Origin: an uncultured Opitutales bacterium
Lineage (GTDB): Bacteria; Verrucomicrobiota; Verrucomicrobiia; Opitutales; Intestinicryptomonadaceae
Assembly: GCA_934660865.1 (NCBI GenBank)
Contig: CAKUIA010000022.1
Span: forward strand, 1 to 23,905
Direction: 5' to 3'
Length of the DNA stretch: 23,905 nucleotides
Part shown: in pieces, positions 5,988-17,304 of the stretch
Position numbering within the stretch: position 1 is the first letter of the stretch
Layout of the letters: each line of letters begins with the position of its first letter
Notes under the pieces: model-generated
Database searches by the model: none
The model's input: the letters and a program-made list of their open reading frames with translations, nothing else
Told to the model about the DNA's origin: nothing
Made by a program: the position numbers and the translations under genes

Positions 5988-7397
5988 ATGAAAAAAAGCG
6001 CAAACGAAAAACAGGCAAGCTGGGGCGGCAGGTTTAAGGAATCGCCCAGCGACTTAATGCTTAAATTCAGCGAATCGGTCTCCTTCGACAAAAAGTTGGC
6101 CTTTTTCGACATACAAGGCTCGAAAGCCCACGCAAAAATGCTCGGCAAATGCGGCATTATAACAAAGGCCGAAGCCGCCGCCATTGTTTCGGGGCTGGAC
6201 AAGGTTGCCAAGCTTATAGAAAAAGGCGAATTTAACTGGAGGCAGGACCTTGAAGACGTGCACATGAACATAGAGCAAACGCTTACGGCAATTTGCCCCG
6301 AGGCCGCAAAACTGCACACAGCCCGCAGCCGCAACGACCAAGTTGCAACCGATATGCGCCTGTATTTTAAGTGGGCCTGCACCGACATTGTTGCAGAGCT
6401 AAAAAAACTTTTGCTTGTGCTTGCCGATTTGGCCGAAAAAAACAAAGACGTGCTTCTTGCCGGCTATACCCACATGCAAAGGGCGCAACCCGTATGCGCA
6501 GCGCACCACATTTTGGCCTGGGCTTCGGCCATAGAGCGCGACATTAAAAGGTTCGAAAACGTCTATCAAAGCGCGAATATTTCGCCTTTGGGCAGCGGGG
6601 CCATTGCGGGAACTACACTGCCTACCGACAGGGAATACGAAGCCAAGCTTTTGGGCTTTACCGACGCAAAGGGCAACGCAATTCTCACGCAAAACAGCAT
6701 GGACGGCGTTTCCGACCGAGACGTTTTTATGGAATTCGAATCGGCCTGCGCCATTGTGGGCGTGCATTTTTCGAGAATAGCCGAAGACATTATTATTTGG
6801 AACACTTCGGAATTCGGTTTTGTAAAGTTGCCCGACACTTTCACAACGGGCTCGTCGCTTATGCCGCAAAAGAAAAACCCCGACTCTTTCGAGCTGCTTA
6901 GGGGCAAATCGGCAAGGCTTATAGGCAATGCCTCTACAATGTTTACGCTGGTAAAGGGCCTGCCGCTTACCTACAATAGGGACTTGCAGGAAGACAAAAT
7001 ACCCGTATTCGATTCGAAAGAGCAGACAACAATTTGCATAAAGGTTTTGTATTCGGCGTTAAAAGGAATGGAATTTAACAGGAAAAACTGCCTTAACGCG
7101 GTGTCCGACCCCCTTCTTTTGGCGACCGACCTGGCCGACTATCTCGTCTCGCAAAAAGTGCCCTTTAGAAAAGCCCACCACATTGTGGGCGAGCTTGTCG
7201 CCCTTTCGGAGGAAAAGAAGGTGAAAATCAACGAGATTTCCGACGAAGACGCCGCAAAAATTTCGCCCGAGCTCGGCAAAAACTGGAGACAGGTTTTCGA
7301 TTTAAAACGCGCGATGAAGCTGCGCAAAGGCGTGGGCATGCCAAACGCCGAGTGCATAAAAAAACACATTGCAAAGATTAGAAAACTTGCAAAATAG
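5988..7397 (+). CDS. argH: Argininosuccinate lyase
   Basis: Full-length 469 aa. Contains WGGRF, TARSRNDQVATD, GYTHMQRAQP and the fumarate-lyase signature GSSLMPQKKNPD. Confidence 0.95.
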   Translation: MKKSANEKQASWGGRFKESPSDLMLKFSESVSFDKKLAFFDIQGSKAHAKMLGKCGIITKAEAAAIVSGLDKVAKLIEKGEFNWRQDLEDVHMNIEQTLTAICPEAAKLHTARSRNDQVATDMRLYFKWACTDIVAELKKLLLVLADLAEKNKDVLLAGYTHMQRAQPVCAAHHILAWASAIERDIKRFENVYQSANISPLGSGAIAGTTLPTDREYEAKLLGFTDAKGNAILTQNSMDGVSDRDVFMEFESACAIVGVHFSRIAEDIIIWNTSEFGFVKLPDTFTTGSSLMPQKKNPDSFELLRGKSARLIGNASTMFTLVKGLPLTYNRDLQEDKIPVFDSKEQTTICIKVLYSALKGMEFNRKNCLNAVSDPLLLATDLADYLVSQKVPFRKAHHIVGELVALSEEKKVKINEISDEDAAKISPELGKNWRQVFDLKRAMKLRKGVGMPNAECIKKHIAKIRKLAK

Positions 7398-9528: not shown

Positions 9529-10971
9529 CTACAAATCTTTGCTTCTGTCGGAGGACAATCGATAGTTGCGCATAATGCGCGGCATTGCCTCTTTCATTTT
9601 CTTTACGTCCAAAATTATGGGCACTTCATAGTCGAAAACAAAGGTTACATAGCCGTCGTTAAGCGAATCTATTATGCGGGCAACGTCTTTTATGGATTTT
9701 ATTTTTTGGCCGTTAATTTCGTAGAGCCTGCTGCTTGCGTACGATTGGTATCCCAAATTTACCTCGTCGCCCAATACAACCGAAAGAACTACAACTTCGT
9801 CGTCGGGCGAATCCTTTTCCTCGTCGATAAGCCTGCTTAAATGTTCGGGCGGGTTTTGCTTTGTCCATTCCGACAAGTAGCTTAGCGAAAGAGTTGTAAA
9901 TACTAGGCCTCCTGCAACATACATTTTTGGAGTTTTGTCGTACATCATCGGCGAAACCATAAAATACGGCTTTTTGGGATACATTTTTACCTCCAACTTT
10001 TTGCCGTCGCGCAGAATGCCGAAATTTACAAATTCGCCCATTTGCTTTGAGTCTACAATGGTCGAAAAATGGCGGTTTTCGCCGTTGTCGGCCTTAATGT
10101 TGCCGTTGTTCATTATTGTTTTGCCGTCTATTGTAAGCAGAACATCGCCCTTCTTTACCGGAGGGTTTTCGCCAGCAAATTTGCGGACCCTGCACACCAA
10201 CACGCCGCTTTGGGTTTCGGACATCTTAAGGTATTTGCGCGTGTCGGGGTTTTCCAGCGTAATTATGCTAATGCCCAAGTCGCCGAAGCCGTCTACCTTG
10301 CCGTCTTGTATGTCTTTTAAAAAGTGGCGTATAACGTCGGTATGTATCATATAGCCGAGGCCTTGCCTGCCCTTGTAGCCCTGAAAGGCAATGCCCACAA
10401 CCTTGCCGTTATACAAAATCGGCCCGCCGCTGTTGCCGGGGTTTATTGCGGCGTCTAGCTGGGCAGCCAAAAAGCTGTCGAGCATGGAATGCGAATAGGC
10501 AACCGCCTCTATGCGCGAAATTATGCCCTGCGTAATGGAAAGCCCGTTGCCACCCAAGGGATAGCCAACCGCCAAAACCTGCGTTCTTACAGGCGGGGTT
10601 TCGCCTATCTCGAAAGGCTCTATGCCGTCGAAAAACCGCTTGTCGGGAACTTCCAAAATCGCCAAATCGCACTGGTGGTCTATTGCCACAACCCTGGCCG
10701 AAACGGGCGAACCGTTGTCTTTTTTGAGCACCGAAACGTATGTGCTATCCGACACATTGTGGGCGTTTGTCAGAATTCTGTTGCCCGAAATTACAACGCC
10801 AGAACCGCTGCCCCTGCTTTGCCCCTTGGTAAGCCACGGCAAAAAGAAATTTGGCTTGCACGAAACCGTCTGGATTTTCACCACCCCCGAAAACTGGTCT
10901 AAAGGCTGGGCAAATGCCCCCAAAGCCGAAGCCGAAATTAAAAGCGAAACTGCTATGTGTTTAATTTTCAT
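9529..10971 (-). CDS. Periplasmic trypsin-like serine protease, HtrA/DegP (S1C) family, with C-terminal PDZ-like region
   Basis: I take the start at ATG 10971 (MKIKHIAVSLLISASALGAFA/QP signal peptide). The catalytic triad context is TNAHNV, CDLAIL and GNSGGP. The C-terminal half looks PDZ-like (GDVLLTIDGKTI). Confidence 0.88.
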   Translation of the reverse strand: MKIKHIAVSLLISASALGAFAQPLDQFSGVVKIQTVSCKPNFFLPWLTKGQSRGSGSGVVISGNRILTNAHNVSDSTYVSVLKKDNGSPVSARVVAIDHQCDLAILEVPDKRFFDGIEPFEIGETPPVRTQVLAVGYPLGGNGLSITQGIISRIEAVAYSHSMLDSFLAAQLDAAINPGNSGGPILYNGKVVGIAFQGYKGRQGLGYMIHTDVIRHFLKDIQDGKVDGFGDLGISIITLENPDTRKYLKMSETQSGVLVCRVRKFAGENPPVKKGDVLLTIDGKTIMNNGNIKADNGENRHFSTIVDSKQMGEFVNFGILRDGKKLEVKMYPKKPYFMVSPMMYDKTPKMYVAGGLVFTTLSLSYLSEWTKQNPPEHLSRLIDEEKDSPDDEVVVLSVVLGDEVNLGYQSYASSRLYEINGQKIKSIKDVARIIDSLNDGYVTFVFDYEVPIILDVKKMKEAMPRIMRNYRLSSDRSKDL

Positions 10972-11078
10972 ATCGCGGCAAATTCTATTTTTATACAAAT
11001 GCGCTTGTAAACAAAATTTTTGGCAAAAAAGCGGCGGCCTTGGGCAAAAAATACCGCGGTTAAAACGCAAAAAAACAG

Positions 11079-11096
11079 TTGCTTTCAACAAAGCAA
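11079..11096 (+). promoter_or_regulatory. Perfect palindrome TTGCTTT-CAAC-AAAGCAA 20 nt upstream of leuD (possible operator or leader hairpin)
   Basis: 7-bp arms at 11079-11085 and 11090-11096, read directly from the sequence. The function is not established. Confidence 0.25.
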
Positions 11097-11116
11097 TCCT
11101 TAGCTTATATAACAAT

Positions 11117-11710
11117 ATGGCACTTGAAAAGATTGAAAAATTTGAAGGACAGGGAGTATACCTCCCCGAAAACGACATCGACACCGACAGAATTATTCCC
11201 GCAAGGTTTATGGTGTGCGTAACATTTGAAGGCCTCGGCAAATACGCCTTTTACGACGAACGCAAAAACGCCGACGGCACCGACAAAGACCACGTTTTAA
11301 ACAAGCCGGAATACAAAAACGCAAACATAATACTGTCGGGCGCAAACTTCGGCTGCGGCTCGTCCAGAGAGCACGCGCCCCAGTCGCTTTGGCACTACGG
11401 CTTCCGCGCAATAATAGCCGAAAGCTTCGCCGAAATCTTTTTCGGCAACGCCACAACTTTGGGCATTCCCTGCGTAACGGCCTCGCACGACGACATAAAA
11501 AAGATTGCCGACGAAGTTGTATCCAAGCCCGATTCCAAGATTTTGATAGACCTAAAGGCGAAGAAAATAAGCTGCAACGGCGTTTCGGTAGACTGCCAAA
11601 TGCCCGAAAACGCGCGCCAAGCCCTAATGACAGGAACGTGGGACCCAATCGCCGAGCTTATGGAAGCCGACACCGACAAAGTCTACAATTCGCTTTGCTA
11701 CACAAAATAG
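11117..11710 (+). CDS. leuD: 3-isopropylmalate dehydratase small subunit
   Basis: I take the start at ATG 11117 (MALEKIEKFEG...). Contains DIDTDRIIPARF, NFGCGSSREHAP and YGFRAIIAESFAEIFFGN, close to the E. coli LeuD motifs. Confidence 0.88.
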   Translation: MALEKIEKFEGQGVYLPENDIDTDRIIPARFMVCVTFEGLGKYAFYDERKNADGTDKDHVLNKPEYKNANIILSGANFGCGSSREHAPQSLWHYGFRAIIAESFAEIFFGNATTLGIPCVTASHDDIKKIADEVVSKPDSKILIDLKAKKISCNGVSVDCQMPENARQALMTGTWDPIAELMEADTDKVYNSLCYTK

Positions 11711-12262: not shown

Positions 12263-12676
12263 ATGGACATACGCCAACGCTCGAAGAAAAGAAGAAAACC
12301 TACCGTAAACATTGTGCCTATGGTAGACGTGCTTACGGTGTTGATTTTCTTTTTCCTGATTACAATGCAGTTTAAGCAGGTAAATGCAGTAGACATTACC
12401 CCGCCTACAATGCAGTCGTCGGAAAACGTAAACTCGAAAGACTTCCCCAACGTAATAGCCGTAAAAAAAGACGGCTCGTGTTTTTTGAACGACAAAAAAG
12501 TTTTGCCCGAAACTTTGGTTGGCGAATTTAAGTTGATATTGGCAAAAGACAAAAACGCCCCGTTTATTTTATTGTCCGACAAAGACACGCCTTTCCAATC
12601 GGTGGCAAACGTTATAGACAAAGCCGCCGTTGCAAAAATAAAAAGGCTTTCGCTTCAGGCAAAGAAGGAAAATTAG
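12263..12676 (+). CDS. exbD: ExbD/TolR-family biopolymer transport protein
   Basis: Contains NIVPMVDVLTVLIFFFLI, a single N-terminal TM and a periplasmic domain. The ATG follows the exbB TAG with zero spacing. Confidence 0.88.
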   Translation: MDIRQRSKKRRKPTVNIVPMVDVLTVLIFFFLITMQFKQVNAVDITPPTMQSSENVNSKDFPNVIAVKKDGSCFLNDKKVLPETLVGEFKLILAKDKNAPFILLSDKDTPFQSVANVIDKAAVAKIKRLSLQAKKEN

Positions 12677-12700
12677 GCCTTTGCCTACCACGCCTTTGCA

Positions 12701-12727
12701 CGCCGAAAATATTTCGGCGTTTTTTTG
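12701..12727 (+). terminator. Rho-independent terminator after exbD
   Basis: CGCCGAAA / TTTCGGCG form an 8-bp stem (12701-12719), followed by seven T (12720-12726). Confidence 0.75.
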
Positions 12728-12729
12728 TA

Positions 12730-12749
12730 CCCGAAATTTCGGGATTTTT
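12730..12749 (+). terminator. Second palindrome CCCGAAATTTCGGG + ATTTTT (tandem terminator or operator)
   Basis: A perfect 14-nt palindrome at 12730-12743 is followed by ATTTTT. It shares the core CCGAAA..TTTCGG with the preceding hairpin. Confidence 0.4.
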
Positions 12750-12831
12750 GCGTTTATTGCGCAACGGGTTTAATTTTGCGAAATTATGGCGATATAGCTG
12801 TAGAACAAAATCAAAAAAAAGGAATAAGAGA

Positions 12832-13221
12832 ATGAAAAAATTGATTACACTTGCGGCTATGTTTGCCGCCACTTGTTTGTTTGCACAAGACAACGCCCAG
12901 CAAAACGCGCCGCAAAATGCGGGCAATGCCGCGGCAGCCCAACAGGCGCCAAGCGCCGACGACGGAGCCGTGGGCGTGATAGAAATTGTGGAAATAAGTT
13001 CGGTAGACACCTGCGGCTGCACAAAGTGCGACTCGTGCAAGGGAAAATTCTGCAAGTGCGACCAAAGCACACCGCAATGCGCAAAGTGCTGCAAGGCAAA
13101 AAAAGGCTGCAAAACCGCAAAGAATTGCGACAAAGCCAAAGCCTGCAAAACAAGCGCAAACTGCGACAGGGCAAAGAACTGCCCCGACGATTCGTGCCCG
13201 AAAACGCTAAAGAGCAAATAA
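12832..13221 (+). CDS. Exported small Cys/Lys-rich protein (metallothionein-like composition), function unknown
   Basis: The ATG at 12832 is preceded by AAGGA. The signal peptide is MKKLITLAAMFAATCLFA/QD, followed by a Q/N/A-rich linker. Residues 61-122 (13012-13197) contain 15 Cys in CxC, CxxC and CC patterns, including a repeated AKNCD[KR]AK unit. Residues 61-129 contain 17 Lys. The gene has its own flanking terminators. Confidence 0.7.
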   Translation: MKKLITLAAMFAATCLFAQDNAQQNAPQNAGNAAAAQQAPSADDGAVGVIEIVEISSVDTCGCTKCDSCKGKFCKCDQSTPQCAKCCKAKKGCKTAKNCDKAKACKTSANCDRAKNCPDDSCPKTLKSK

Positions 13222-13252
13222 TTTTTGTTGGTTGTATATAGATATAAAATCC

Positions 13253-13287
13253 AGACTCCGCCCAGATTTTGCGGGGTCTTTTTTTTG
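13253..13287 (+). terminator. Rho-independent terminator of the Cys-rich protein gene
   Basis: AGACTCCGC (13253-13261) pairs with GCGGGGTCT (13271-13279), with one G-U pair, and is followed by a T-run at 13280-13286. Confidence 0.7.
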
Positions 13288-13323
13288 CGAAAAAAACATT
13301 CGCGCAAATCGGCAATTCAACAC

Positions 13324-13993: not shown

Positions 13994-14102
13994 ATAAAAA
14001 TAAAGTCGCTTCAAATAACACCATATTTCACCTTGCAGCGCAAGCCTATATAGGCGGAAATTTCATATAAAAAACCCGCCCGGGTGCGGAGATATTTTTG
14101 CG

Positions 14103-14128
14103 AACAAAAAAGCGGCAAAAACCGCTTG
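14103..14128 (-). terminator. Rho-independent terminator ending the seven-gene operon
   Basis: The minus strand reads AAGCGG-TTTTTG-CCGCTT-TTTTGTT. A second small GC hairpin plus T-run (ACCC-GGGC-GGGT-TTTTTTA) lies just downstream at about 14066-14090. Confidence 0.5.
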
Positions 14129-14164
14129 GGGGTAATTGCCGCCGTTGTGCTAAATACAATTCCG

Positions 14165-16099
14165 CTACCTGCTTAATATCTGTTTTGCCAATTTTGCGAT
14201 TTCGTCGTTGGCTATGGTCGACATCGGGTAAATGTCTTTTGCGTTTATGTAGGCAAGCAAGGCCGCCCAGTTGTCGCCCGAGGCTTTCGCCTCGTTTGCC
14301 TTTGCAAGGGCGGCGGCAAACGACGAAGCTTTCACGGTTAAATCGGCTCTGATTTTGTTTAGCTGCATGTCTTCGGGAAACTGCATATAAACTTTCTCGA
14401 CAATCTCCCACGCGGCAAAATTGTTTTTCAATCTTGCAAGCTCCTTCGCCTGCCCTATCGAAGTTTCTATAATCTCCATGCGCTTCATTATTTCCAGAAA
14501 ATCTTTGTTGCGCGTTTGGTCGGCCGCCAAAGCCGCAGCAAACCTGAAGCGGTCGTTAAAAATGCCCCTGTAGTCTTTTTGGGCGAAAAGCCTGTCGAAA
14601 TCGGAAGTGGCAACGTCTTTTAAATCTACGCGGCCAATCATTGTCTTTAAGAACTCCTGAATTTTAGGGTTTGTGGGCCAAAAGCCAACAGCCTCCTGCA
14701 GCGCGCTTTCAACCGCGGCCTGGTTGCGCGTTTGCGCCGCAACAAGCGCCTTTTGCAGGGCCAAATCGCTAAGCTGGCGCGAAGTTTGTATGAAGGCCTC
14801 TATCTGCCCCGAATCGAAGTCTTTTGTGTAGCTTTGAATTTCCTTTAAAATTTCCGAAGCCCTTTCTACATGCTTTACTTTTACCGCGTTTACAAGTTTG
14901 TCGCAATCGCGCAAATAGCGCATAATTTCGCGCTTGGAATCCATCGGGAAAGTTTTTACGCACGCCAAGTTTTCGCCCACAAAAAACGCCTCGAGCATGC
15001 GCTGCGTTGCCGAGTGTATTTCGCCGCGCGAAATCAGGTATTGGGCTGCTTTCACGGCCTTGTCGGCGTCGTTTATGGCCTCTTTGCAAAGGGCGTCCAG
15101 CGTAGAGGTTGTAAGCTTTATGTCTACGCCTCCGAATACCTGCCCTTTAAGCGAATCTATGCCCTCTATTTTCCCGTCTTCGGCGGCAAAAAGGTAGCGG
15201 TAAAAATCGTTTGCAATCATTGCATGGTAGTACCTGCGCTGGAGGAAAAACTGCACGATAAGGCTTTGGAAATCCATCTTTTGGTTTATCCTAGACGACG
15301 CCTCGTATGATTTGTTTTCCTTTATTTTCGCCTCGGTTTCCTGAATGCGCTTTTTTATGGGGTCTATTTCGTAGTCTCTCGAAGGCGGCGGCGTTGCGTC
15401 TTTGCCGCGCATCATTGCGATAAATTCGCGCCTGTCCATGCTCGAAATCATGCGCATTCCCGACTCTTTTCTGCTTCTGTCCTGCTCGAGCTTTTCGTTT
15501 TGTATTGCAAGCTTTTCTATCTTTTTGGTGGTCTGCCAAAAGTTTACAACCTTGTCGGCAATGGTTCTGCAAAGCTGGTCGTCCATCGGGTATTCCTGGG
15601 CGTTGAACAACATTCGCCATGCGTCCAAAGTTCTTTCGGCATCGCTGCCGCCGCCCTTGCCCGCCAAACGCTGACTTATGTCGACTAAAAGCTGGTTGTA
15701 GGCCAAATCTTCGCTGGTGGTTGCCGGCGGCGAATTCAAATATTTTTCGAAACGCGCCCTTATAATTTTCTGTTGGGCGTCGTCTACCTTCTTGCCCGAA
15801 AAATCTACAAGGTTGCCCTGGTTTTGCAAAAGCGAAATGATTGCCGAATTGTCGCCGCCGCCAAAGCCGCCCAAATTTATCGGCAATGCCGAAATATTAT
15901 TGCCGTTTGCGGCGTTTGCCGCGCCTTTATCGGGCGCCGAATTTTGCGCGGGCAAGGCGCTGTTTGGGGTGCTGTTTTGCCCCGCTTTAGCGCCCGTCTG
16001 TTCGGGTGTTTGCGGCAGGTTTTGCGTGTTTTGCGCCGCCTGTTGTGCATACAGCCCGCAGGCTGCAAACATAAAAATGTAAAACAAATTTCTGTTCAT
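14165..16099 (-). CDS. Secreted 644-aa, largely alpha-helical protein of unknown function
   Basis: The signal peptide is MNRNLFYIFMFAACGLYA/QQ, followed by a ~60-aa Q/N/A/P-rich linker and a long helical region with a TPR-like C-terminus. The ATG lies 1 nt after the upstream stop (TAG-T-ATG). Confidence 0.65.
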   Translation of the reverse strand: MNRNLFYIFMFAACGLYAQQAAQNTQNLPQTPEQTGAKAGQNSTPNSALPAQNSAPDKGAANAANGNNISALPINLGGFGGGDNSAIISLLQNQGNLVDFSGKKVDDAQQKIIRARFEKYLNSPPATTSEDLAYNQLLVDISQRLAGKGGGSDAERTLDAWRMLFNAQEYPMDDQLCRTIADKVVNFWQTTKKIEKLAIQNEKLEQDRSRKESGMRMISSMDRREFIAMMRGKDATPPPSRDYEIDPIKKRIQETEAKIKENKSYEASSRINQKMDFQSLIVQFFLQRRYYHAMIANDFYRYLFAAEDGKIEGIDSLKGQVFGGVDIKLTTSTLDALCKEAINDADKAVKAAQYLISRGEIHSATQRMLEAFFVGENLACVKTFPMDSKREIMRYLRDCDKLVNAVKVKHVERASEILKEIQSYTKDFDSGQIEAFIQTSRQLSDLALQKALVAAQTRNQAAVESALQEAVGFWPTNPKIQEFLKTMIGRVDLKDVATSDFDRLFAQKDYRGIFNDRFRFAAALAADQTRNKDFLEIMKRMEIIETSIGQAKELARLKNNFAAWEIVEKVYMQFPEDMQLNKIRADLTVKASSFAAALAKANEAKASGDNWAALLAYINAKDIYPMSTIANDEIAKLAKQILSR

Positions 16100-16100
16100 A

Positions 16101-16484
16101 CTATATCTTTCTAAAAGCGGTCAGCAGCAATTTGCCGTCTTCGTCTATGCGCACGTTAAAATTATACCTTTGCCCCACCGACGGGTTAAAGCCTTCAAGC
16201 GTTGCGGGAACAAGCAGCGGCAAAGACTTGCCCGAATTTGTCTTTATCAAAATAATGCGCCCGACATTTTCGGAATATGCAAGCTGGCTGTCGACCAACG
16301 CCGAAATGGAATATTCGTTGCCCGCAAACGACTTGGGCAAATCGCAATATTGGGCTATGGGCAGCTTTGCGCCGTCTTGGGCCGAACCCCCCGAATTCGC
16401 GTTTTTATACAGAAAACCTGCCACTATAAGCACAGATGCTACGGGTATTGCGGCGGCTATGATAACTGAACGTTTGTCTTTCAT
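16101..16484 (-). CDS. 127-aa N-terminally membrane-anchored protein, unknown function
   Basis: MKDKRSVIIAAAIPVASVLIVAGFLY forms a single TM, followed by a ~95-aa beta-rich domain. The gene lies 11 nt downstream of the MauE-like gene. Confidence 0.6.
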   Translation of the reverse strand: MKDKRSVIIAAAIPVASVLIVAGFLYKNANSGGSAQDGAKLPIAQYCDLPKSFAGNEYSISALVDSQLAYSENVGRIILIKTNSGKSLPLLVPATLEGFNPSVGQRYNFNVRIDEDGKLLLTAFRKI

Positions 16485-16495
16485 AGAATAGTACT

Positions 16496-16918
16496 TTATG
16501 ATATAAATCTTTTATTGTTTAACAAGAATATAATTGCGCAGAATGCAATTAGCGCAAAATTCCTAAGCAGCGGCAGCATAAGCCCCGAATTTGAAGAGCC
16601 AAAACACCCGCACGAAATGTCTAAATTGCGCCACATTGCCGATATTATGGCTGCGATAAAAACAGCAAGCATTAAAGCCACCACAATAATCGCGCTTTTT
16701 GCATAATTTCGGCACAGCAAGGCTGCGGCGCACACAAGCTCTAAAGCGGGCAAAAAATATGCGACAATCAGCGCGGCGTTTTCCGGCAAAATTTTATAAT
16801 TTAAAATTGCCGTGTAAAATTCGGGCGGGTTTGCAAGCTTCAATGCACCGGCATACGCAAATACAACAGCCAAAATTATGCGCAAGGCTGTTTCGGTTAA
16901 TTTTTTGACGTTTTCCAT
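16496..16918 (-). CDS. MauE/DoxX-family redox-associated membrane protein
   Basis: I take the start at ATG 16918 (MENVKK...); the track start at 16927 is a TTG. There are four hydrophobic helices. AYAGALKL and the C-terminal ISCGCFG motif are typical of MauE-like proteins. Confidence 0.7.
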   Translation of the reverse strand: MENVKKLTETALRIILAVVFAYAGALKLANPPEFYTAILNYKILPENAALIVAYFLPALELVCAAALLCRNYAKSAIIVVALMLAVFIAAIISAMWRNLDISCGCFGSSNSGLMLPLLRNFALIAFCAIIFLLNNKRFIS

Positions 16919-17304
16919 TTTTGCCAATCGCCCTTAAGCACAAATACTTTTTTAATGTTAAATTCGTTTCTCAATTTGTCGGCAACCGCCCTGCCCGCGT
17001 TGCAGTCGTTTGCCGAGCAATACACCAAAACCGCGCAATCGGGTTGCCACAGTTCAAAAAAAGCGGCAAGGCTGTTTTCAAAATCTTCAGCCGGCAGGTT
17101 AACCGCATTTTCAATATGCCCCGTTTTGTAGTCTTTGCGGGAGCGCGCGTCTACAACAACAAGCCTTTCTTGTAAGTTTTCGACTTCGGCAAGCGTAATT
17201 TCGGCAACTTTTGCGGCAATGCGGTTATTGTTTAGCAAAAAATTTGCAAACGCCAAAAGTATGCTTAAAAGCAAAATAACGATTATGCCGTTAATTGTTT
17301 TCAT
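16897..17304 (-). CDS. Membrane-anchored rhodanese-like domain protein
   Basis: I take the start at ATG 17304 (MKTINGIIVILLLSILLAFA). Contains VVDARSRKDYKTGHIENAVNLP and LVYCSANDCNAGRAVADKL...LKGDWQKW, i.e. a rhodanese fold with a CxxxxC active-site loop. Confidence 0.75.
   Translation of the reverse strand: MKTINGIIVILLLSILLAFANFLLNNNRIAAKVAEITLAEVENLQERLVVVDARSRKDYKTGHIENAVNLPAEDFENSLAAFFELWQPDCAVLVYCSANDCNAGRAVADKLRNEFNIKKVFVLKGDWQKWKTSKN

Follow-up and report, generated by a model that had tools for sequence, protein, structure and literature searches.

The DNA analyzed here, 23,905 nucleotides from an uncultured Opitutales bacterium of the Verrucomicrobiota (contig CAKUIA010000022.1, positions 1 to 23,905; this whole stretch is called the window), carries a small cysteine (Cys)-rich open reading frame (ORF) after exbD, at positions 12832-13221 of the plus strand. 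The ORF is a real, selectively constrained gene, and it is an orphan confined to a single narrow clade of human-gut Opitutales. To judge from its N-terminus, the product is probably exported; it ends in a domain packed with Cys and lysine (Lys). We tentatively propose that it serves as a thiolate-rich metal (or thiol redox) buffer outside the cytoplasm, a function to which we assign well below even confidence.

The Cys-rich product

Translation of the ORF gave a product of 129 amino acids, in which the following features were distinguished (pI, isoelectric point; SPase I, signal peptidase I).

12832-12885 (+): signal peptide, residues 1-18, MKKLITLAAMFAATCLFA, with SPase I cleavage predicted before Q19
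12886-13005 (+): acidic linker rich in Q, N, A and P, residues 19-58, QDNAQQNAPQNAGNAAAAQQAPSADDGAVGVIEIVEISSV, pI 4.05
13006-13218 (+): basic Cys/Lys-rich domain, residues 59-129, DTCGCTKCDSCKGKFCKCDQSTPQCAKCCKAKKGCKTAKNCDKAKACKTSANCDRAKNCPDDSCPKTLKSK, pI 9.1
13027-13110 (+): Zn2Cys6-type spacing C-x2-C-x6-C-x6-C-x2-C-x6-C, residues 66-93, a pattern match only
13090-13197 (+): five hexad Cys repeats (C-x5-C) with two 12-residue repeats, residues 87-122, the length-variable part

The whole protein has 16 Cys, one in the signal peptide (C15) and 15 at residues 61-122, and 19 Lys, 17 of them within residues 59-129. These 71 residues include a single Arg, a single Phe and no His. The domain composition is 23% Lys and 24% Cys, the latter far outside the usual composition of bacterial proteins. 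Residues 61-122 contain two CxC, three CxxC, one CC and five C-x5-C motifs. The six-residue Cys spacing occurs five times in succession, from C87 to C117, and is followed by one five-residue spacing to C122; within the run, the 12-residue repeat C-K-T-[AS]-[KA]-N-C-D-[KR]-A-K-[AN] is present in two copies. No DNA-level tandem repeat was detected in the Cys region by Tandem Repeats Finder, which indicates that the 12-residue repeat arose long ago and has since diverged. The sequence between the Cys is nearly all K, A, D, N, T or S, and there is no hydrophobic mini-core. The linker ends, on its C-terminal side, in a conserved GVIEIVEIS segment.

A preliminary description of the locus, made from the sequence alone, had listed the Cys and Lys counts, the CxC, CxxC and CC motifs, the single aromatic residue and the lack of His, and these were confirmed by ORF translation and motif count. 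The AKNCD[KR]AK unit that it had singled out proved to be part of the 12-residue repeat, and the metallothionein-like composition that it had pointed out holds for residues 61-122 (6.6 kDa, 24% Cys, one Phe, no His).

The N-terminus consists of MKK, a 15-residue hydrophobic stretch and LFA/QD, where the slash marks the likely point of SPase I cleavage, A18 standing before and Q19 after it. This succession of MKK, LITLAAMFAATCLFA and, after the cut, QD was judged by eye to be compatible with the Sec/SPase I pattern, in agreement with the signal peptide proposed earlier, and it resembles the N-termini of other predicted exported proteins of the window with Gln at +1. There is no twin-arginine. 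The mature protein is predicted to have about 11.5 kDa, of which the Cys/Lys-rich domain would account for 7.5 kDa.

Selection on the gene

A second ORF lies on the opposite strand of the same DNA.

12612-13307 (-): antisense ORF, 231 amino acids, sharing the third-codon register of the plus-strand gene; artefact

The locus was collected from related assemblies (designated L001 and L003 to L009) and more alleles were taken from the protein cluster, resulting in 14 distinct full-length alleles. Because the antisense ORF shares third-codon positions with the Cys-rich gene, the ratio of nonsynonymous to synonymous substitution rates (dN/dS) was computed for both frames. Variable sites per codon position numbered 16, 13 and 44. 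The plus-frame dN/dS was 0.05-0.21 for the gene as a whole and about 0.1 for the Cys domain alone; in the antisense frame it was 0.21-0.38, above that of the plus frame in every pair. All 15 Cys of the domain are invariant across the 14 alleles, three of them (C69, C86 and C122) with synonymous TGC/TGT changes, and tail position 128 is the sole site that switches between Cys and Ser. Consequently to this conservation in 14 alleles, the extreme Cys composition cannot be attributed to chance. The mature protein has 15 Cys in seven alleles and 16 in the other seven. All indels are in frame: a deletion of six amino acids (CKAKKG) is found in L003, L006, L007 and L008, and L001 has a deletion of 25 amino acids plus an indel of one; these changes take out one or four Cys.

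The reading that the ORF is not a gene, but a chance ORF or a shadow of the antisense ORF, could draw on the fact that gene callers picked the antisense ORF in two related contigs, on the low complexity of the sequence and on the absence of homologs of the Cys-rich protein. It is rejected by the substitution pattern, and with the synonymous changes at Cys codons and the in-frame indels added we consider it practically refuted. The antisense ORF also crosses both terminators that flank the gene, enters exbD and has a stop codon in L001. The dN/dS values, together with the signal peptide, the ribosome-binding site and the flanking terminators of the plus frame, favor the plus strand over the antisense ORF.

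Public gene calls at this locus diverge. At L006:4334-5014 (-) and L008:4320-4883 (-) the antisense shadow ORF is annotated instead of the Cys-rich gene, and in other contigs the call is extended upstream to a TTG or ATG start, with products of 164-170 amino acids. As a result, the Cys-rich gene is inconsistently represented in protein databases.

In L001 (GCA_965307745.1) the codon for Cys76 is TGA in place of TGC (positions 6223-6225, aligned with window positions 13057-13059). The frame stays open past this TGA to the homologous TAA, through two in-frame deletions, and the codons after it show a ratio of nonsynonymous to synonymous polymorphism (pN/pS) of about 0.2-0.4. The TGA is known from one assembly; L002 ends before codon 76. 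Recoding of the TGA as selenocysteine is the less favored reading: no selenocysteine insertion sequence was matched in Rfam, the fold downstream of the TGA was insignificant (z -1.6) and the nearby rhodanese is of the Cys form. The TGA more likely stems from a nonsense mutation of recent date or from an error in the assembly.

Distribution and homology searches

The GTDB genomes contained one locus, in an uncultured Opitutales metagenome-assembled genome from a Hadza gut metagenome, with a product 92% identical. A HMMER profile search of 1.84 billion protein representatives returned only the representative of the family itself, and a word-indexed search, run across 5.8 billion clusters, yielded three that are near-identical, all without a name. 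JGI metagenomes, queried with protein patterns and with a degenerate DNA pattern, gave no match, nor did viral contigs. When the whole protein or the domain was compared with Pfam and NCBIfam at E values up to 10, the only families matched were Zn_clus, which is discussed below, and YjbE, the latter at these relaxed thresholds with an E value of 0.05 in the signal-peptide region. SmtA/BmtA (PF02069) and the other Pfam metallothionein families gave no profile match. In a literature text search, the phrase "periplasmic metallothionein" was not found.

The preliminary description had made its case depend on homologs with conserved Cys spacing. No distant homologs were found; among the members of the clade, however, purifying selection keeps the Cys positions strictly conserved. 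Likewise, the homolog search with hidden Markov models that it had suggested yielded nothing beyond the family, although the alleles of the clade and their genomic context were retrieved.

AlphaFold2 models had a predicted local distance difference test (pLDDT) score of 40.5 for the full-length protein (four sequences) and 56.6 for the domain alone, values compatible with metal-dependent folding and equally with a shallow alignment. A Foldseek comparison of the AlphaFold model with the PDB gave no match, and no structural inference was drawn from these low-confidence models.

An exported thiolate buffer as a tentative function

In the proposed mechanism, Sec would export the protein and signal peptidase I would cut it before Q19. 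The acidic Q/N/A linker, joined to the basic Cys/Lys-rich domain, would be disordered. The host is presumably an anaerobic gut organism, and an anoxic, non-oxidizing envelope would keep the 15-16 thiols in their reduced state. The reduced thiols could then bind soft metal ions such as Zn(II), Cu(I) and Cd(II) in thiolate clusters. The main cluster, perhaps binuclear and of the Zn2Cys6 type, would be built from residues 61-93, the half that is dense in CxC, CxxC and CC, and the C-x5-C hexads would add variable capacity. As in vertebrate metallothioneins, the lysines that flank the Cys would offset the negative charge of the clusters. The function of the protein would then be to buffer metals or thiol redox state, either in the periplasm or outside the cell. 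Exported Cys-based metal buffers have precedents in Csp1, exported by the twin-arginine translocation (Tat) pathway (PMC7558416), and in the bufferins, exported by Sec (PMC11626156).

Organisms that make disulfides in their envelope are expected to show a bias toward even numbers of Cys (PMC2823432). Of the seven further proteins of the window that contain Cys and are predicted to be exported, a tiny sample (n = 7), six have an odd Cys count. Taken together, the non-conserved parity, the single-Cys deletions, the odd-Cys exported neighbors and the lack of a hydrophobic core argue against an obligatory all-disulfide fold.

The Zn2Cys6-type pattern is a further lead. Residues 66-93 fit the PF00172 spacing C-x2-C-x6-C-x5-12-C-x2-C-x6-8-C exactly, with Pro preceding the fourth Cys and the basic residues placed as is usual for Zn2Cys6, and the fit is kept in the alleles with the six-residue deletion. 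The top matches in phmmer and hmmsearch comparisons with the PDB were the Zn2Cys6 domains of GAL4, LAC9, PPR1 and Cep3, with E values of 0.005-0.008 and overall to 0.5; scytovirin was the only other protein matched in the PDB. The score against Pfam Zn_clus was 11.3 bits versus a 21-bit cutoff (E value 0.4), so that the gathering threshold was not reached. Among composition-matched shuffles, the strict pattern appeared in 0.2% and the general pattern in 3.6%. The likeness suggests a possible binuclear thiolate cluster and serves as a structural lead, not as a sign of family membership.

Several observations weigh against a thiolate buffer. Profile and sequence searches linked the protein to none of the metallothionein, Csp or bufferin families, and the 24-kb window contains no metal-resistance, metal-transport or metalloregulator genes. 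The C-x5-C half is atypical for a metallothionein and is like disulfide-stapled repeats such as those of scytovirin. The Zn2Cys6 match, besides staying under the Pfam threshold, was noticed post hoc, and the Cys-parity sample is as small as stated above. The layout of an acidic propiece and a cationic Cys-rich part also suits secreted antimicrobial peptides. Finally, the positional counterpart in a sister lineage lacks Cys altogether, which means that thiols are not necessarily part of what selection maintains here.

The composition is clearly that of a metallothionein, a kind of protein that is polyphyletic and operationally defined. That the protein is a genuine Sec-exported metallothionein of recent origin, formed by the addition of a repeat-expanding Cys/Lys tail to the local signal-peptide/Q-N-linker module, is possible but doubtful. 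If so, it would constitute a new, independently evolved class of bacterial metallothioneins and a clear case of the birth of a young gene under purifying selection. An exported thiolate buffer would be plausible mainly in anaerobes with a reducing envelope and would bear on how gut Verrucomicrobiota handle dietary Zn and Cu; it would also represent a compact 7-kDa metal-binding module, encoded by a young orphan gene that is already strongly constrained.

Alternative functions

The preliminary description had left a metal or redox buffer and a disulfide-knotted secreted factor side by side. Both are kept here, the former as the tentative proposal set out above and the latter as a possibility that we regard with some doubt; no computation in this work separates the metal-thiolate from the disulfide reading. 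The second possibility is a disulfide-stapled cationic secreted mini-protein, which could be antimicrobial or bacteriocin-like, act as a lectin for glycans or mucin, or form a small solenoid. It would have a fixed disulfide ladder, the acidic linker would be a neutralizing propiece, and the basic domain would bind membranes, lipopolysaccharide (LPS) or sulfated or sialylated glycans. The bipartite charge, with a pI of 4.05 in the linker versus 9.1 in the Cys domain, fits this scheme, since an acidic propiece followed by a cationic domain is the typical layout of precursors of defensin-type and other antimicrobial peptides. The five regular C-x5-C hexads, with small residues (A or S) at fixed positions, recall scytovirin, whose PDB match was nevertheless insignificant (E value 0.25-3.6). 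They also bring to mind the beta-helix of the Tenebrio antifreeze protein, in which the repeats are braced by disulfides, although the PDB search did not retrieve it. Strict Cys invariance suits a disulfide framework as well as it suits metal ligands. On the other hand, Cys parity is not conserved (15 versus 16), several alleles tolerate deletions of a single Cys and there is no mini-core of Gly, Pro or aromatic residues. Even Cys counts are not favored among the other exported proteins of the window, the vicinity contains no immunity, transporter or secretion genes, and neither a confident fold from AlphaFold nor a Foldseek match was obtained. Were this alternative correct, the protein would represent a new bacterial antimicrobial or lectin scaffold.

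A structural envelope protein, cross-linked through intermolecular disulfides or bound electrostatically to LPS or peptidoglycan, is less probable, and we consider it unlikely. The model here is the OmcA/OmcB complex of chlamydiae, which belong to the same Planctomycetes-Verrucomicrobia-Chlamydiae (PVC) superphylum as the host, a member of the Verrucomicrobiota. The protein is small, predicted to be exported, Cys-rich and very basic. Intermolecular cross-linking would tolerate variation in the number and parity of Cys, and a strong ribosome-binding site and terminators would suit an abundant protein. Nonetheless, Pfam gave no match to the chlamydial outer-membrane protein families, the protein is not a lipoprotein, and restriction to one narrow clade would be odd for a core envelope component. 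A reading of C15 as a lipoprotein Cys was discarded: AATC/AASC is a poor lipobox, and the signal peptide of the sister-lineage counterpart (L010) lacks Cys and has a canonical AFA/QDNA site.

It is very improbable that the product is the precursor of a peptide that ribosomes synthesize and that is post-translationally modified (RiPP), Sec-exported as the bufferins are and with its Cys turned enzymatically into metal-binding heterocycles. Bufferin precursors do have Sec signal peptides, and some MNIO-associated precursors, including ones from PVC bacteria, contain many Cys (PMC11626156); furthermore, a DoxX/MauE-family gene is located 3.3 kb away. However, that gene is part of a separate, rhodanese-containing unit on the other strand, and the Cys-rich gene is monocistronic, with terminators on both sides. 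No gene for an MNIO (DUF692), DUF2063, radical-SAM or other maturase was present among the window ORFs scanned, and NCBIfam and Pfam gave no bufferin or DUF2282 match.

Transcription unit

The elements around the gene are as follows (MFE, minimum free energy).

12700-12749 (+): exbD terminator, hairpin 12700-12720 followed by T7, separating the gene from exbB-exbD; MFE -19.5 kcal/mol, z -2.5
12768-12812 (+): upstream block TTTTGCRAAATTATGGCGATATASCTGTAGAACAA, near-invariant in the window, L001, L003 and L004
12820-12823 (+): Shine-Dalgarno-like AGGA, 8 nucleotides before the ATG, read from the sequence
13253-13287 (+): intrinsic terminator of the gene, hairpin 13253-13279 with a 9-bp stem and a 9-nucleotide loop, followed by T8; MFE -14.7 kcal/mol, z -2.1

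The gene is monocistronic and bracketed by terminators, as had been described before; folding confirmed the hairpins, each with its T-run, on both sides. The hairpin at 12700-12720 is kept in L001, L003 and L004, and the downstream terminator is conserved in all alleles. The block at 12768-12812 is the putative promoter region of the gene itself, as the DNA just upstream of it is not near-invariant; no strong sigma-70 consensus was found upstream of the gene. Directly after the exbD terminator, at 12730-12743, there is a perfect 14-bp palindrome, CCCGAAATTTCGGG, followed by a T-run. The palindrome occurs in the window and in L004, whereas L001 and L003 have unrelated sequence in its place. A role as a second terminator or as a strain-specific operator is possible.

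Genomic neighborhood and the slot after exbD

The genes upstream are leuD, exbB (PF01618) and exbD (PF02472), and a gene for a DedA/VTT membrane protein lies downstream on the opposite strand. It had been suggested that the Cys-rich gene sits where tonB or tolA would normally follow exbBD. To place it in context, related Opitutales loci were reached through ExbD homologs. Where ExbD identity is 87-93%, the Cys-rich gene is present after exbD. At 60% identity (L010 to L012) a different exported orphan, without Cys, fills the slot, and at about 50% (L013 to L018) there is no small gene and a YjbR-like gene or a rho-like ATPase comes next. The conserved block is leuD-exbB-exbD, and neither tonB nor tolA follows exbD in any of the related Opitutales loci examined. 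The suggestion therefore did not hold: the slot after exbD is a variable region, not a tonB/tolA position.

This synteny also rules out that the gene encodes a degenerate or replacement TonB/TolA partner of the ExbB-ExbD motor, a reading that we regard as effectively refuted despite the position directly after exbD, the N-terminal hydrophobic segment with its low-complexity linker and the Pro-rich repeats of the sister-lineage counterpart. A conserved terminator separates exbD from the gene, Pfam and NCBIfam found no C-terminal domain of TonB (TonB_C) or TolA, the signal peptide shows a predicted cleavage site and not a TonB-type anchor motif, and more distant Opitutales have no such gene in the slot.

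The slot protein of L010 begins with MKKFSLAMLIAMMASFAFA/QDNATQD and continues with several copies of GEKGQRPQRPEGxM, the number of which differs between contigs. The repeat-protein loci are L010:1980-2273, L011:1385-1741 and L012:1164-1295, with versions of 97 and 118 amino acids. A search for this protein showed that it too is an orphan, with one partial Opitutales protein as the only match and no bridging forms. The Cys-rich protein and its L010 counterpart have only the signal peptide and the first residues (FAQDNA.Q) in common, and the DNA upstream of the two genes does not align.

Similar N-termini occur elsewhere in the window. The 644-amino-acid exported neighbor at 14165-16099 (-), without a Pfam or NCBIfam match, has a signal peptide and a Q/N-rich linker, MFAACGLYAQQAAQNTQN, closely like those of the Cys-rich gene. 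At an equal distance from the start codon, the DNA of the two genes is weakly similar (score 27; shuffle mean 17.6, standard deviation 2.4), which may reflect a shared or duplicated export module. The Cys-rich protein looks as if a novel tail had been joined to an N-terminal export module that is common locally.

Gln is found at +1 in about four of the seven exported proteins of the window. The predicted SPase I substrates with this residue are those cut at 12886 (Q19) and encoded by the minus-strand ORFs 10971 (FA/QP), 16099 (YA/QQ) and 19680 (FS/QT), in addition to L010:2037. The pattern in this Opitutales clade resembles the "Q-rule" (N-terminal pyroglutamate), which has been described as Bacteroidetes-specific, with no mention of Verrucomicrobia (PMC5837995).

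A cluster at 16101-17304 (-) encodes a membrane-anchored rhodanese, a MauE/DoxX-family membrane protein (PF07291, E value 6e-28) and a family-less membrane-anchored protein of 127 amino acids. The active-site region of the rhodanese, LVYCSANDC, is of the Cys form, and the protein weakly matches "rhodanese-related (seleno)protein". The cluster may be an envelope thiol or sulfur redox module.

In L004 to L009 there are two extra genes between the DedA/VTT gene and that of the 644-amino-acid protein (window 14015-14164 versus L004:9190-11882), one for a family-less protein of 228 amino acids and the other for a FAD_oxidored protein of 545-558 amino acids. Neither had a tblastn match anywhere in the window, which indicates a strain-level indel of about 2.6 kb. 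Upstream, the longest leuD ORF, 10622-11710 (+), of 362 amino acids, overlaps the HtrA-like protease gene at 9529-11241 (-). In related contigs leuD is called at 197-222 amino acids and the protease at 480; the true leuD start is probably near 11040-11120 and that of the protease at 10971.

Comparison with known systems

The Zn2Cys6 domain of GAL4, LAC9 and PPR1 (PF00172) is a fungal nuclear DNA-binding domain, and in the Opitutales protein nine extra Cys surround the pattern. Residues 87-122 are like scytovirin and the Tenebrio antifreeze proteins in that Cys recurs every six residues, separated by small ones; unlike the Opitutales protein, these proteins have conserved even Cys counts.

OmcA of chlamydiae is likewise a small, exported, Cys-rich protein of a PVC bacterium, located in the outer membrane. 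It is, however, a lipoprotein, whereas the Opitutales protein has a predicted SPase I-type site and no Pfam match to the OmcA family.

Vertebrate MT1 and MT2 have about 60 residues, 20-30% Cys, Lys beside Cys, no His, almost no aromatic residues, and CxC, CxxC and CC motifs. In composition they are like the Opitutales domain, but they are eukaryotic and cytosolic, have no regular C-x5-C repeat and share no detectable homology with it. The bacterial metallothioneins SmtA/BmtA (PF02069), MymT and PmtA are also small and very high in Cys, with CxC and CxxC motifs and few aromatic residues, and the Opitutales protein is presumed to bind metals in thiolate clusters as they do. They are cytosolic and lack a Sec signal peptide, and SmtA uses His ligands and a zinc-finger-like fold; the Opitutales protein has far more Lys, a half made of hexad repeats and no sequence match to them. 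To our knowledge, the characterized bacterial metallothioneins are cytosolic. PmtA of Pseudomonas has nonetheless been reported on the cell surface (PMC11237414).

Csp1, a four-helix bundle with 13 Cys, is a periplasmic Cu(I) store (PMC7558416) and is exported and Cys-rich; the Opitutales protein is Cys-rich too and probably exported. It carries a Tat signal and is exported as a pre-folded helical bundle with a Cys-lined core, while the signal of the Opitutales protein is predicted to be of the Sec type. The latter has no Pfam match to Csp1/Csp3 (DUF326), no twin-arginine and no confident prediction of a helical bundle. The bufferins BufA1 and BufA2, copper-binding RiPPs modified by MNIO enzymes, are small, Cys-containing proteins with a Sec signal that accumulate in the periplasm and buffer metals (PMC11626156), as is proposed for the Opitutales protein. 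They differ in having 4-6 Cys and a defined fold and in needing adjacent MNIO and DUF2063 genes, which are absent from the window ORFs scanned. What sets the Opitutales protein apart from the described families is its predicted Sec signal, the half made of hexads, an extreme content of Lys and the lack of relatives. If it does act as a metallothionein-like buffer, its export by Sec without modification would be a third solution, next to the Tat-exported, pre-folded bundle of Csp1 and the enzymatic modification of the bufferins.

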